Position numbers and translations under genes: made by a program
NCBI GenBank assembly: GCA_963790825.1
Contig: CAWBPM010000002.1
Span: 97,702-161,701, forward strand
Direction of reading: 5' to 3'
Source: Candidatus Levyibacteriota bacterium
GTDB taxonomy: Bacteria; Patescibacteriota; Microgenomatia; Levybacterales; UBA12049
Length of the DNA: 64,000 bases
In this document: piece by piece, positions 36,735 through 64,000 of the stretch
Numbering within the stretch: the stretch's first letter is position 1
Layout: each line of letters begins with the position of its first letter
Notes under the pieces: model-generated
Told to the model about the DNA's origin: nothing
What the model saw: the letters and a program-made list of their open reading frames with translations, nothing else
Database searches by the model: none

Positions 36735-39000
36735 TTATTTCTTATTTACCAACTTTCTCTCAAACTCTGCAATATTTTCTCTGACACTGTCGATGACATC
36801 AGGAGCAATAGAAACGCTGGTTATGCCATATTCTACTAATTTTTCCAGAAGATCCGGATACAAAGAAGGCGCCTGTCCGCAAATAGACGCTGTGATATGG
36901 TGCTTATGAGCAGTTTTGATAACATGTTCAAGCGCCCACAAAACCGCTTCACTCCGTTCATCAAATTCCGCTGCCACCTCGCTATTGTCCCGATCAGTTC
37001 CCAAAATCAACATGGTTAAATCATTTGATCCGATCGAAATACCGTCAATACCAACTTTTATAAATTCGTCAAGTAAAATAACATTCGAAGGAATTTCTAC
37101 CATCATGAAAAGCTTGAATGTCGGAGTTCTGTAAAGACCCGAAGCATTAATAATTTTCTTGACTTCAATCAGCTCATGAACGTTCCTGACAAACGGAATC
37201 ATGAGCCAAAGATTTTTCAACATCTTTTTGTTTCTGATTATTTTAATAGCTTCAAGTTCCATCTCGAAGACCTCGGGATCATGAATATACCGGTAAGCCC
37301 CGCGGTAACCCAGCATAGGATTTGGCTCGATAGGCTCAAATTCTTTCCCGCCGTCCAAGCCCCGATACTCATTCGTTTTTAAATCCGACGCCCGATAAAT
37401 AACCGGACGGGGATTAAAGGCTGAGCAAAAAGTCTCAAGCCCCAGAGCTAATTTATCAATAAAAACTTTTTTCTTCCCGTCCCGGATGAGTTTTTTCGGA
37501 TGAGTGCCGATATCTGCTATCATAAACTCCGCACGCAGTAACCCAACACCGTCGACATTTCGTCTGGCTACTTTTTCCGCGAGATCCGGTTGGGCAAGAT
37601 TAACATAAACTTTTGTCGCAGTTTTTATATATGCATGTCTTGCTTCAGGAATAGAACTCATCGCGCTTGGTTTGAAGCTCCCTTTGTATATTTCTCCCTT
37701 TGCTCCGTTTACCGTGATGACCTCTCCTGTTTTTAATATTTTTGTTGCCGTTTCGGTACCGACGACTGCCGGAATCCCCAGTTCCCGGGAAACAATCGCA
37801 GCATGTGAAGTTCTGCCGCCTTTTTCAGTCACGATAGCTACAGCTTTTTTCATCGCCGGAACATAATCGGGATTTGTTTGCTCTGCAACCAGTACATCTC
37901 CCGGGAGAACTTTATTAATTTCAGACACCGAATGAATTACTTTCCGCGGGGCCGCTGGCAATTCCCGGAGAAGCAGGGGCACCGGTAAGAAGAAGCGGTA
38001 GATTAATAACTTCCTCTTTTACCTTTTTCGTATGAGTAGTTGTAATTGCCCGGGTTTGGACAATATATACTTTATTTTTCTCAATCGCCCATTCGATGTC
38101 CTGGGGAAAATAATAATGATGCTCAAGTTTTTTTGCAAGAAGTGCGAGTTCTAAAATCTGATTGTCGGAAATTTTCTGTTTTTTCTTTTCATGATCCGTT
38201 AACCTAATCTCTTTATTTTTTGTCCCAACCTTTTTCAACATAATATCTTGCGGAGAGATAATTTTTTTCAAAATCTTAAGATCATCTTTTTTAACTTCAT
38301 AGTGATCGGGCGTAACCGTTCCCTGAACAATATTTTCTCCGAGACCCAAAATTGCTTCGATGGTAATGACAGACTTATCATTAGTTACCGGATCAAGGGA
38401 AAACATAACACCGGATTTTTCTGACTCAACCATTTTTTGAACAACGATTGCGATACCGACTCTGAAATGATCAAAATGTTGTTCATGCCGGTAAAATATG
38501 GCACGCGGTTCAAAAAGTGATGCCCAAGCTTCTTTGACTGCGAAGAGTAGATTTGTTTCACCTTTTATATTAAGATACGTTTCCTGCTGTCCTGCGAAAG
38601 ACGCAGTTGGCAAATCCTCAGCAGTAGCGCTTGAACGCACCGCAACAAGTGCGTCTTTAAAAATACCACCCAACATTTTATACGATTTAAAAATGTCATT
38701 GATTAATTGTTCCGACATACTCGCTTCCATAATCAGTTTTTTAATAAGTGAGGAAACTTGAGCAAGTGATTCGGGTCTGTCAAAACCGGTGGTTCCCAGT
38801 AGATGTTTAATTTTTGTGGTCAGGTTATTTTCGTGAAGAAACTGGAAATAAGATTGGGAGGAAACAATAAACCCATTCGGAACGGGAAATTTGGCTCTGG
38901 TCATCTCGCCCAAATTAGCACCTTTTCCGCCAACAACGGGAATGTCATTTTTATCTACTTCGGAAAACCAAAGAACTGATTTACTTTTTACGGGCATCAC
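36735..39000 (-). pseudogene. ppsA: phosphoenolpyruvate synthase (pyruvate, water dikinase) split by one frameshift
   Basis: N-terminal 359-aa ORF is the PPDK_N ATP-grasp (PEP/pyruvate-binding) part. C-terminal 415-aa ORF has the phospho-His mobile domain GGRTSHAAIVSRELGIPAVVG and the PEP-utilising TIM barrel. The junction near 37925-37980 falls in a G/C-run (AGCGGCCCCGCGG). A 1-nt indel rejoins GIASGPA to RKVIHSV. Confidence 0.6.
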
Positions 39001-59960: not shown

Positions 59961-62198
59961 ATGAATGATCTACCTGAACTTTTAACACTGCGTGAGGCAA
60001 GTATTGTACTTAAAGTTCATCCAAACACGCTAAGACTTTGGGATGAGAAAAATATTCTGAAAGCAATACGGATTGGACAAAGAAAAGTACGTAGATATAG
60101 AAAAAAGGATATATTTAAGCTGCTGGAAGGAAATCAGAATAGTAAAAAACGCGACGACAAATCACAAGAGGCTATTCCTAAGCGGCAAGCTCTCGACAAT
60201 CTGGCAAATTATAAAGCAATAATTTTTTCTTCCCATGATGCAATTATTGGAAAAACACCGGACGGCATAATCACGAGCTGGAATCCTGCTTCTGAAAAAC
60301 TATACGGGTACACGGCAGCGGAAATTATTGGTAAATCAATTCTGACCATTTATCCTAAAGGACAAAAACAGGAGTTTTTGGAAATTATGCGAAAAATTAG
60401 ATCCGGAGAAAGAATTGATCACTACCAAACAACTAGAGTACGAAAAGATGGAAAAAAGATACATGTATCGGTGAGTATTTCGCCGGTTAAAAATCAAGAA
60501 GGAGTAATTGTAAATGTTTCGACAATAGCCAGAGACATAACCAAGCAGAAGCAGGTAGAAGAAAAGCTAAAGTTTCTAACTGCAGTTACAAAAGAGTTAG
60601 CCACATCAGTTCACAGTAGAGTAACGCTTAATAAAGTCCTTAGTGTTATTGTGCCATTTCTGGCCGATTATTGCAGAATAGCAATAGTAAATCACAAACA
60701 AACAGTTAAAGAGATTATTGTCGTCCATAAAGATCCGAAAAAACTTACTTTGGTAAAAAATCTCAATAAAAAATATAAGAATTTTCGCGAAACTTCCATG
60801 GGCATTCGTGGTCTGCTAAGAACGGGAAAGCCTCAGCTGTTGACTACTTTAAATAAGAAAATCCTTGAAAAATACCCGGTTCCTGATGATATACAAAAGG
60901 TTGTAAAAAAATTAAACCTGAAATCATACATGGGAATTCCACTTATCGTTCGGGGGAAGATAATTGGGGCAATGACCTTTTCATCTATTTCCGAGGACCG
61001 GCTCTATACTAATGAAGATTTGGAATTAGCGCAAGAGATCGGGAGACAAATTGCTCTTATGATCGATAATAACAGACTATACCAGGAGGCACTTCGGGAA
61101 ATAAGAGATCGGAAAAGGATTGAGGAAAAAATAAAACAGAACGAAGAGCGGTTCCGTGTTCTATTTGAGCACAGTGCGGATGGTATTACTATACTTGACA
61201 AGTCGGGAAAAAGAATATACGCAACACCCTCCAGAAAAAATATTCTCGGCTGGGACCCAAAGGAAGGTTATAAAGATAATATTTTCAAAATTCTCCACCC
61301 GGATGATGTAGTGAGAATAAAAAAAGATTTTGCGCAAGTACTCCAAAATCCCAAAGAAAGCATCACAACTACCTTCCGGGTTAGGCATAAAGAAGGGGGT
61401 TGGGTATGGGTGGAAGCTACGGGAACAAACTTACTGCATATCCAGATTATCGGGGGGGTGGTTATTAATTATCGGGATATTACTGAAAGAAAACAGATAG
61501 AAAATAGGAAAGATGATTTTATCAGTATGGCAAGTCATGAACTAAAAACTCCGGTGACATCAGTGAAAGCTTTTGCTCAAATACTGCAAAAACTCCCCGA
61601 GATACAGAATACAAAATCAAAAGTATACCTTGAAAAGATGGATACGCAGATTAATAAACTTACGAAATTAATTATTGATCTTTTGGATGTATCCAAAATT
61701 CATAAAGGCAAACTGGACTTTCGAGAGGAGAAATTTGATTTCGATCAGCTGGTTGAGGAAACCGTCGATACTATTTCGCAAACCGTATCGACCCACAGGA
61801 TACTGATTGAAGGGAAGACAAATAGCAAAATTATCGGTGATACTGATCGGATTAGTCAGGTGATTATTAACCTTTTAACAAACGCTGTTAAATACTCCCC
61901 GAAGGCGGATGAAGTTATCGTGCGATTGGCAAGAAGTAACAATACGGTAATCATGGCAGTCCAGGATTTCGGTATCGGAATCCCCGTGAATCATCAACAA
62001 AAAATATTTGAGCGTTTTTACCGAGTAAATGAATCTGAAGACAGATCTTTCGCGGGACTGGGAATCGGCCTTTATATCTCGTCTGAAATTATCAGTCGTC
62101 ATGGAGGAGAGATGTTTGTAAAAAGTAAAACAGGCGAGGGGTCAATATTTTCTTTTATATTGCCAATAAAACAAAAAAAGACACTAAAAACTGCGTGA
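59961..62198 (+). CDS. multi-sensor histidine kinase with N-terminal MerR/excisionase-type HTH (HTH-PAS-GAF-PAS-HisKA-HATPase)
   Basis: HTH: LTLREASIVLKVHPNTLRLWDEKNILKAIRIGQRKVRRY. PAS regions at ~85-200 and ~395-510, with a GAF-like segment between. H-box FISMASHELKTP. N/G boxes LLTNAVKYSP and GIGLYISSEIISRHGGEMFV. 745 aa, no TM helix. Confidence 0.7.
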   Translation: MNDLPELLTLREASIVLKVHPNTLRLWDEKNILKAIRIGQRKVRRYRKKDIFKLLEGNQNSKKRDDKSQEAIPKRQALDNLANYKAIIFSSHDAIIGKTPDGIITSWNPASEKLYGYTAAEIIGKSILTIYPKGQKQEFLEIMRKIRSGERIDHYQTTRVRKDGKKIHVSVSISPVKNQEGVIVNVSTIARDITKQKQVEEKLKFLTAVTKELATSVHSRVTLNKVLSVIVPFLADYCRIAIVNHKQTVKEIIVVHKDPKKLTLVKNLNKKYKNFRETSMGIRGLLRTGKPQLLTTLNKKILEKYPVPDDIQKVVKKLNLKSYMGIPLIVRGKIIGAMTFSSISEDRLYTNEDLELAQEIGRQIALMIDNNRLYQEALREIRDRKRIEEKIKQNEERFRVLFEHSADGITILDKSGKRIYATPSRKNILGWDPKEGYKDNIFKILHPDDVVRIKKDFAQVLQNPKESITTTFRVRHKEGGWVWVEATGTNLLHIQIIGGVVINYRDITERKQIENRKDDFISMASHELKTPVTSVKAFAQILQKLPEIQNTKSKVYLEKMDTQINKLTKLIIDLLDVSKIHKGKLDFREEKFDFDQLVEETVDTISQTVSTHRILIEGKTNSKIIGDTDRISQVIINLLTNAVKYSPKADEVIVRLARSNNTVIMAVQDFGIGIPVNHQQKIFERFYRVNESEDRSFAGLGIGLYISSEIISRHGGEMFVKSKTGEGSIFSFILPIKQKKTLKTA

Positions 62199-62380: not shown

Positions 62381-62983
62381 TTATAAAATTACCTCAGTTT
62401 CCCCTTTTATATATTGACGAATTAACAAACTAATCAAAGTTTGATAGGCTATACCGTTTCTTTTAGCCTTAGCTTTAACTTTAATAAGATCCTCTAAATT
62501 AACCCTTAGAGTAATACTTTTAGTTTCTTGCAACTGCCTGAAGTTTTTAGCTGCTTCCAGAAACATTTCTTTAGTTGCTTCTAAATTAGGTGCATTCACG
62601 AATTCACCCTTGCCTATTGCATCCTCTATCTCCTGTTCATATTTGTTGAGTACTGCATTCATTTTTTGACACCCCCCCTTCATAAATTTATTTGTTAAAA
62701 TTCTACTTGGATAGATTGTTTTAAGAAAGATTACTTTCTTTTTAGGATCTATAATATAAGGTACAGCGTAGGCATAATTTTTTCTTTTTATTACCAATAT
62801 TCTTTGGTGAGCATATTTTTCATTACTATGTCTTAGGTCACCTAGTATTTTTTTTTCTTCGATAGCGACAATAACATCCTCAAATCCTATTTCTCTAGTT
62901 TCCTTTAACAATAAGTTTTTCTCTTCTGAGAATTCAATTCTATAGCCTTTGTAGCTCACAGAAACATTATACTCGCTGTACAT
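62381..62983 (-). CDS. BrnT-like toxin (DUF497, RelE fold) fused in-frame to BrnA-like antitoxin (RHH)
   Basis: N-terminal ~95 aa: YRIEFSEEKNLLLKETREIGFEDV...AHQRILVIKRKNYAYAVPYII...KVIFLKTIYPSRILTNKF matches the BrnT pattern (FEWDExKN...KHGVSFEEA...). C-terminal ~95 aa: ITLRVNLEDLIKVKAKAKRNGIAYQTLISLLIRQY matches BrnA. The junction runs through a C7/G7 homopolymer at 62667-62673. Confidence 0.55.
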   Translation of the reverse strand: MYSEYNVSVSYKGYRIEFSEEKNLLLKETREIGFEDVIVAIEEKKILGDLRHSNEKYAHQRILVIKRKNYAYAVPYIIDPKKKVIFLKTIYPSRILTNKFMKGGCQKMNAVLNKYEQEIEDAIGKGEFVNAPNLEATKEMFLEAAKNFRQLQETKSITLRVNLEDLIKVKAKAKRNGIAYQTLISLLIRQYIKGETEVIL

Positions 62984-63227
62984 ACTTTGTCAATACACGA
63001 AATGGACTAACATAGTCCAAAAAGCCTCCTAATATGCTCCAATATTTTGCACTGGAATCAGCTTCTAGCTTCACTCCAAGCGTGGAAAGCAGAATTATGT
63101 CCCGAGGTCAGTTCGTCTTTAGCTCCAACTGCCATGAGATATTAGAATCAGAAGATTAATTAAAGGAATAAATTCCAATTGAAAAGTATGTTCTTGATAG
63201 CTAGTCAGTTCTAGATAATAGTTTAAG

Positions 63228-63404
63228 TATGAGTTGGGAAAACGCCTCTACCATCCAGAAAGTATTAGCAGTTTTCTTATTCTTTTGTGCAGCCTTTGGA
63301 GTCTATTATTATTTTACATCTGGGAAGCAAGACTTTCATATACTCGGAACAGCCGGTCTTTTTATTATCTTTGGCATGATCGCACTTCGTTCTAAGAAGA
63401 AATA
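63228..63404 (+). CDS. small membrane protein (58 aa)
   Basis: MSWENASTIQKVLAVFLFFCAAFGVYYYFTSGKQDFHILGTAGLFIIFGMIALRSKKK has two hydrophobic helices. Coordinates +/-1. Confidence 0.3.
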
Positions 63405-64000
63405 ATTCATATCAATCATATTCTATGTTTGTACAGACTGGTCAAATTGAAGTAAGAATTAAAGAAAAAACATACTATATCTTCCAGACTTTCTCGATAG
63501 TTAGGACATTTTACGGCATATGTTGATGGAGCTGAGAGTCCAGGCATTAAGAATCTTGCACTTATTTCTGGACCATTTACACTACAGATTGGTAGTACCG
63601 AAAAGCATGAAGTACGCTTTCAGTTATTATTACCAGCAATAGCTATGGCTTTTAAGCACACTCCTGTGCAGGTATATATAGGTGATGCCTTGGTAAAAAC
63701 ATTTTAGTAAGAATACATTCTAACTTCCCCAATCCTTTGGAGAGTATTTCTGAATGAAGTTTATTCTTTTATATGAATTCAAATAGCTCATCATTGTGAC
63801 TCGAAGGCCTCACTGTTCGAACTAACTCTTGCTTGGCTTGAACGTTTAAGGAAAGTATATGGGCATGAAAATTGAGGTTACACAACACTGAGTTTGAGAG
63901 TACTACCAATCACGTTATTTGTAGTATAGTCTCTTTTTTGACATTATTACAGAATACCAATCTGACTGTTAATATAATTAAAATCATTAACTAGCTGTTT

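Follow-up and report, generated by a model that had tools for sequence, protein, structure and literature searches.

The locus described here raises the question whether a toxin and its antitoxin, which share one reading frame in the genome of an uncultured patescibacterium, constitute a genuine fused gene or whether a two-gene operon has been drawn into a single frame by one base, be it in the DNA of the organism or in the deposited sequence alone. A sequence-only reading of the window (the whole stretch of 64,000 nucleotides that was analyzed) had described the locus as a BrnT toxin (DUF497, RelE fold) and a BrnA antitoxin (ribbon-helix-helix, RHH) fused across a C7 homopolymer. The translation bears out that toxin and antitoxin lie in frame within one ORF (Table 1), and it is the presence of both domains in a single ORF by which BrnT-BrnA fusions are recognized. 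On the coding strand the junction runs ATG AAG GGG GGG TGT CAA AAA ATG AAT (window DNA: ATGAAGGGGGGGTGTCAAAAAATGA); the junction peptide of the 200-aa ORF is NKFMKGGCQKMNAV, with ...MKGGCQKMNAV... across the homopolymer. The homopolymer had been noticed correctly but placed five nucleotides away from its actual position, at 62667-62673. Read as a G7 run on the coding strand, it encodes the Gly-Gly pair of the toxin tail. The tract itself is statistically unremarkable because G/C runs of at least seven are not over-represented in the window (two seen, against about 0.9 that a model of independent bases predicts). What makes it notable is its position, 18 nt ahead of the ancestral toxin stop. 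The only other G/C run of this length is a second G7 at 61452-61458; it is situated inside an intact ORF of 745 aa (59961-62198), which encodes a PAS/GAF histidine kinase and converges on the toxin-antitoxin operon.

Table 1. Features of the toxin-antitoxin locus, in the numbering of the window
Feature	Position	Strand	Remarks
Sigma-70-type promoter	62966..62993	-	TTGACA at 62993-62988, 16-nt spacer, TATAAT at 62971-62966; 12/12 consensus match
Fused ORF, BrnT-like toxin + RHH antitoxin	62381..62983	-	200 aa, mechanical ORF call
Probable start codon GTG	62957..62959	-	6 nt after the -10 box; assigned from conservation
Toxin half, BrnT-like, RelE/BECR fold	62663..62959	-	All 14 family-invariant residues, including P-S-R, intact
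G7 homopolymer, frameshift site	62672..62678	-	C7 on the plus strand
Ancestral toxin stop TGA (ATGA overlap)	62659..62661	-	Present, out of frame in the window
Antitoxin half	62381..62662	-	Own ATG at 62662-62660; 93 aa; probable C-terminal ribbon-helix-helix; stop TAA at 62383-62381

Close relatives of the locus, about fifty overall, were compared (three loci and 43 metagenomic loci; 29 when a strict motif was required). The loci returned by the species-representative and metagenome contig scans do not include the window's own genome, and the flanks of the relatives are unrelated to those of the window, so that no orthologous locus from a sister strain is at hand. A search for contigs encoding the fused protein or the neighboring histidine kinase likewise yielded no second DNA copy of the locus. 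Toxin and antitoxin are separate genes in every one of the 43 close metagenomic loci that have both halves, and fusions are likewise absent from the 29 strict-motif loci; the fusion is thus not kept as a gene family. In two of the relatives (L001 and L002) toxin genes of 117 and 154 aa, as called, overlap by 4 nt with an antitoxin gene of 93-94 aa. With hardly any exception the nearest relatives have ATGAAAGGAGGTGTCAAAAAATGA at the junction, which translates to MKGGVKK* and includes the ATGA overlap, and nearly all of the closest metagenomic loci read ...AAAGGAGGTGTCAAAAAATGA, again with an overlap of 4 nt. Toxin-first order and the 4-nt ATGA overlap give the relatives the gene layout that is typical of BrnT systems. 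In a DNA alignment with L001 and L002 the window proved to be longer by one base, located inside the G run. This alignment substantiates two statements of the sequence-only reading, namely that toxin and antitoxin are normally separate, overlapping genes with the toxin first, and that their fusion comes down to a single base in the homopolymer. A genuine conserved fusion, the outcome it had set against its own proposals, did not emerge when the brnTA-type loci of relatives were compared, as none of the close ones is fused.

The relatives also reveal how the tract came about. Their G tract is interrupted (AAAGGAGGT), and the longest G run at the junction of the 29 strict-motif loci amounts to two in 24 loci, three in four loci and five in a single locus, while the distance from the YPSR motif to the stop codon spans 16-21 residues. 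The window differs from them by AAA to AAG and GGA to GGG, which are both synonymous, and by one additional G. Removal of one G from the window restores exactly the ancestral two-gene layout. When run lengths from G5 to G8 were compared in silico, fusion resulted with G7 only. G6 yields a toxin of 107 aa ending in MKGGVKK*, the TGA of which overlaps the antitoxin ATG, and G5 or G8 yield a toxin with an aberrant tail of 12-13 residues. The assertion that a length change of one nucleotide would terminate the toxin and release the antitoxin ATG accordingly holds, with G6 giving precisely the two-gene arrangement. The antitoxin ATG is still there in the window and is still overlapped by the now out-of-frame TGA. 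The G7 run is moreover the Shine-Dalgarno sequence of the antitoxin, as it corresponds to the AGGAGG of the relatives, turned into GGGGGGG in the window, 9 nt upstream of the antitoxin ATG. In the toxin tail the last three residues alone are changed, from ancestral VKK to CQK.

How the toxin is to be classified depends on the level considered. At the level of fold the designation BrnT is appropriate, as the window toxin has a RelE/BECR-type fold closest to that of BrnT. As a statement about family membership it does not hold: the window protein gave no match to Pfam PF04365 (DUF497) at E <= 1, and the model is matched by four out of 12 toxin-family members, all of them below threshold (best E = 1.6e-4). 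When PDB sequences were searched with a profile of the toxin family, only chance matches came up, and 3U97 was not found. About 25 proteins of 110-154 aa, none carrying a Pfam domain, were retrieved by database search as 60-80% identical to the N-terminal half only. By HMM criteria the window toxin is a member not of DUF497 but of a widespread sister family for which there is no Pfam model. In species-representative genomes, 542 of 600 pattern matches encode a toxin relative; hosts comprise Patescibacteria, Campylobacterota, Spirochaetota, Desulfobacterota, Gammaproteobacteria, anammox bacteria and others. In the scan of these genomes (loci L003-L082) the toxin-family gene is nearly always followed by an RHH antitoxin of the PF12441 type.

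The antitoxin half presents a similar picture, in that the proposed label is appropriate at the level of fold only, with RHH as the probable fold. Against the window, PF12441 (CopG_antitoxin) scores higher (4e-5; 24.7 bits) than PF14384 (BrnA; 0.002; 18.9 bits), both values lying below the respective cut-offs of 28 (gathering) and 26.1 bits, and the match to the NCBIfam BrnA model NF047399 is weak (16.8 bits; cut-off 60). More than 120 stand-alone antitoxins, mostly of 93-94 aa, share 70-91% identity with the C-terminal half according to a database search. PF12441 is precomputed on nearly all of the 120 listed, two of which carry PF14384 as well. Some of the stand-alone homologues, from Candidatus Levybacteria or Daviesbacteria, bear the name 'antitoxin'. 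The RHH motif ITLRVNLEDLIKVKAKAKRNGIAYQTLISLLIRQY is kept across the antitoxin family, and an AF2 monomer model contains the RHH helices at residues 163-175 and 180-193 with pLDDT values of 77-85, without a strand for the ribbon. COG5304 denotes a 'predicted DNA binding CopG/RHH family protein'. The locus resembles systems that combine a CopG_antitoxin (PF12441, COG5304) with a COG2929-like toxin, because nearly all close stand-alone homologues carry PF12441 and lie directly downstream of the toxin; the window's own score, however, stays under the gathering cut-off for that family. From BrnT/BrnA proper (2012; PDB 3U97; PF04365 / PF14384) it differs in a toxin that has no PF04365 match in the window and sub-threshold matches only in relatives, in an antitoxin that scores better with PF12441 than with PF14384, and in the placement of two genes in one frame. 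In functional terms the locus is fairly described as 'BrnT-like toxin plus RHH antitoxin', a toxin-antitoxin pair of type II.

The called start of the ORF, ATG 62983-62981, falls within the spacer of the promoter. The string 'GTA TTGACA AAGTATGTACA ... TATAAT' (-35 box, spacer core and -10 box) is kept in about 35 relatives from among L001, L002 and L083-L125, and the DNA 5' of 'GTA TTGACA' is unrelated among relatives. In nearly all close relatives the -10 box is followed after 6-7 nt by a GTG, rarely an ATG, and the upstream ATG in the spacer is missing from three of them (L095-L097). This pattern of conservation suggests that translation of the toxin probably starts at GTG 62959 and not at the called ATG, and that the mRNA is probably leaderless or near-leaderless. 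A start at this GTG would entail such an mRNA and a fused product of 192 aa. As promoter and GTG are conserved, the 'N-terminal peptide' (...IDKVCT..YN...) of database proteins would be nothing other than the promoter read as protein. That gene-caller N-termini of the toxin family appear to be translated promoter is of practical importance whenever these proteins are expressed or modeled.

Upstream of the -35 box, at a distance of 9 nt, lies a palindrome with 7-bp arms (TGGACTAtgtTAGTCCA, 63003-63019), which was flagged as terminator-like and is not conserved in relatives. It had been considered as an operator for the antitoxin and was dropped, since relatives share nothing 5' of 'GTA TTGACA'. 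The operator is more plausibly sought in the conserved spacer AAGTATGTACA. The region of about 1 kb upstream of the operon (63000-64000) contains no ORF of more than 58 aa; the longest one (63229-63405) looks like a small membrane protein. Two pairs of 12-nt inverted repeats also occur there (63587/63900 and 63404/63768).

On the basis of these features the following sequence of events is proposed. A BrnT-like toxin/RHH-antitoxin operon in a Patescibacteria genome of the Microgenomates type would be transcribed from a consensus promoter. Through the substitutions AAA to AAG and GGA to GGG, both synonymous, a pure G6 run would have arisen at the purine-rich end of the toxin gene, within the ribosome-binding site of the antitoxin, and one further G, 18 nt ahead of the toxin stop, would have moved the toxin frame into that of the antitoxin. 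Translation would then run through the toxin, complete but for its last three residues, into the complete antitoxin. Free toxin would not be made, and toxin would be present solely tethered 1:1 to its antidote. The antitoxin can probably still be translated separately as well, judging from the persistence of its own G-rich ribosome-binding site and ATG. With the toxin tethered 1:1 and the antitoxin separately translatable, the module would effectively be disarmed or operate as a single chain; a disarmed or cis-neutralized module appears to be its most likely state. In an AlphaFold model of the fusion the toxin is predicted with pLDDT above 86, residues 98-160 reach 41-54, confidence being low for the linker and the N-terminal portion of the antitoxin, and the pTM is 0.48. 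No confident arrangement of the domains relative to each other follows from this model, and neutralization in cis is thus without structural support.

Another frameshift at a G/C run is apparent in the same window. The gene ppsA for phosphoenolpyruvate synthase (36735-39000, minus strand) carries a +1 frameshift in a CCCC run (GGGG on the plus strand, 37948-37951) and, although otherwise perfect, is split into two overlapping ORFs, one with PPDK_N and the other with PEP-utilizers and PEP-utilizers_C; the fragments measure 358 and 397 aa. Deletion of one C from the run yields a continuous protein of 753-754 aa. In 120 of the 120 best relatives listed, which are 68-74% identical and belong to Levybacteria, Microgenomates and Patescibacteria, ppsA is a single gene of 747-798 (mostly 750-762) aa. 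The ppsA fragments are on record from NCBI and ENA, not from Logan; hence the assemblies disagree at this gene although they agree at the toxin-antitoxin locus. A search for an intact Logan version did not turn up a near-identical full-length ppsA protein, the best match being 74% identical. The split represents either real gene decay, with ppsA a pseudogene, or an assembly indel.

The reading we prefer, at a probability of roughly 0.6, is that of a recent, lineage-specific and unprogrammed frameshift that is truly present in the DNA. Recency follows from the integrity of everything else, from the promoter and the GTG through the invariant residues of the toxin to the antitoxin. The sequence-only reading had offered error and phase variation as the two choices and had left out a plain recent frameshift, which is the simplest explanation; of its two choices, error retains some weight. 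The organism would in that case possess G6 and a split operon, and the fused ORF would exist in the deposited sequence alone. One base in a homopolymer of seven is a classic indel error, the locus is otherwise pristine, no close relative is fused, and the frameshift in ppsA shows a second +1 change at a C/G run within the same 64 kb. Against this, the identical 200-aa product is on record not only from NCBI and ENA but also from the Logan read re-assembly, unlike the ppsA fragments; the contig measures 751,017 bp, and the neighboring products of 685, 745 and 1081 aa are recorded from all three sources alike. A split version of the window locus would show up as a repaired toxin and a stand-alone antitoxin, and about 15 billion proteins include neither. 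Homopolymer errors do not seem to be pervasive, given that the window keeps its long ORFs (up to 1081 aa) intact despite containing the other G7 and 75 A/T runs of 7-9. Finally, the tract differs from that of relatives by two substitutions, from which it follows that a slippage-prone G6 did exist in the window lineage. Taken together, we consider it probable that G7 is the true majority sequence and an error unlikely, though by no means negligible.

Two further explanations accept the fused frame as real and ascribe a purpose to it. If the tract were switchable, the cell would alternate between, or mix, a tethered harmless form and free toxin plus antitoxin, through DNA slippage (phase variation), slippage of RNA polymerase or a +1 shift of the ribosome on GGG GGG. 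A G7 run is indeed slippage-prone, G6 restores the armed operon exactly in silico, and, as read from the sequence, tRNA-Gly slipping by +1 on A AGG GGG GGT would yield the ancestral MKGGVKK*; a gene for tRNA-Gly(CCC) is present. Homopolymer contingency loci are known from phase-variable genes of Neisseria, Campylobacter and Helicobacter, and the window shares with them a coding G/C homopolymer the length of which sets the reading frame. However, compared with known contingency loci its tract is short at seven bases, it is lineage-specific, and the available data contain no length polymorphism: no length variants of the window locus turned up in any collection, and no G6 or G8 product occurs among the roughly 15 billion proteins. 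The slippery site that a programmed +1 ribosomal frameshift would need is not conserved either, relatives having an interrupted tract with a longest run of 2-5, and programmed slippage has no support. The phase-variable toxin:antitoxin ratio that had been suggested is therefore not upheld, and we regard a switch as extremely improbable. If it existed nevertheless, a subpopulation would carry an armed module after a slip to G6 or slippage on the G run, a single slip would suffice to fuse toxin-antitoxin pairs that have the layout with a 4-nt overlap, and some entries in the catalogue of 'fused TA genes' would be switches of this sort, or else artefacts. A stable gene that encodes toxin and antitoxin as a single chain and is maintained by selection, i.e. 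a cis-neutralized module serving for example in phage defence, would be in line with the intactness of both halves and with the catalogued BrnT-BrnA fusions, given that some fused TA genes are functional (PMC11980606). Yet the fusion is shared by no relative, more than 120 close antitoxins stand alone, the linker consists of just three residues made by the frameshift, and the two-gene layout still has its internal ribosome-binding site, its ATG and, out of frame, its TGA. Such a gene is very improbable here. The absence of fusion from close relatives together with their interrupted G tract leaves both a conserved fusion and a phase-variable tract unsupported. The window case is an ordinary one-off frameshift or sequencing slip and not a new kind of system.

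An accidental frameshift as the origin of the fused frame is not without parallel in the toxin family. Two of the 80 species-representative loci (L003-L082) are fused. One of them stems from the isolate Vreelandella azerica TBZ9 (L066, 2501-3070) and arose by a 1-nt deletion beside the same G run of the ribosome-binding site, as is evident when 'ctaagggggtagcatg' of Marinobacter fuscus (L030) is set against 'cta-gggggtagcatg' of the isolate; the deletion lies just 5' of a G5 ribosome-binding site and converts 'ctaaggggg' to 'ctaggggg'. In the other, from a MAG (L007, 2501-3136), the fusion junction is located within a poly-A stretch. A third case is a cyanobacterial fusion of 180 aa (P0031), which occurs on ten contigs, four of which, those shown (L133-L136), come from four different samples, and which exists in several diverged variants. 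Here, a comparison of fused (L133-L136) and split loci (L137-L139) identified a deletion of 40 nt between two TCCCA direct repeats, by which the toxin loses its invariant S-R and its C-terminal helix and the frame passes into that of the antitoxin. Read from its sequence, this protein is a remnant of the toxin joined to a live antitoxin. These three cases imply that small indels at the gene overlap have led to fusion repeatedly, and the window fusion is one more such case and the least damaged one.

BrnT-BrnA fusions as such have already been described (mBio 2025, PMC11980606). The catalogue lists 28 prokaryotic and four eukaryotic BrnT-BrnA fusions, with RHH domains in 31/33, as part of 195 toxin-antitoxin fusions of the RelE/ParE superfamily, and takes their number to suggest function; frameshifts, pseudogenes or sequencing errors are not mentioned as an origin of fusions (PMC11980606). 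The window ORF resembles these fused brnTA mono-gene modules in being a single ORF with an N-terminal BrnT-type domain and a C-terminal RHH antitoxin domain (PMC11980606). In contrast to them, its fusion can be traced to one homopolymer base and has no counterpart in close relatives, and none of the signals of the two-gene layout has been lost.

The biological weight of the finding is small, as it amounts to a single toxin-antitoxin pair brought into one frame in one uncultured bacterium. The locus provides, nevertheless, a clean worked example of a database 'fused toxin-antitoxin gene' that is one homopolymer base away from the two-gene form. The published fusion counts (195, of which 32 are BrnT-BrnA; PMC11980606) probably include frameshifts, deletions and errors, and the toxin family itself supplies examples with the +1 in the G run of the window, the 1-nt deletion of the Vreelandella isolate and the 40-nt deletion in a cyanobacterial population.
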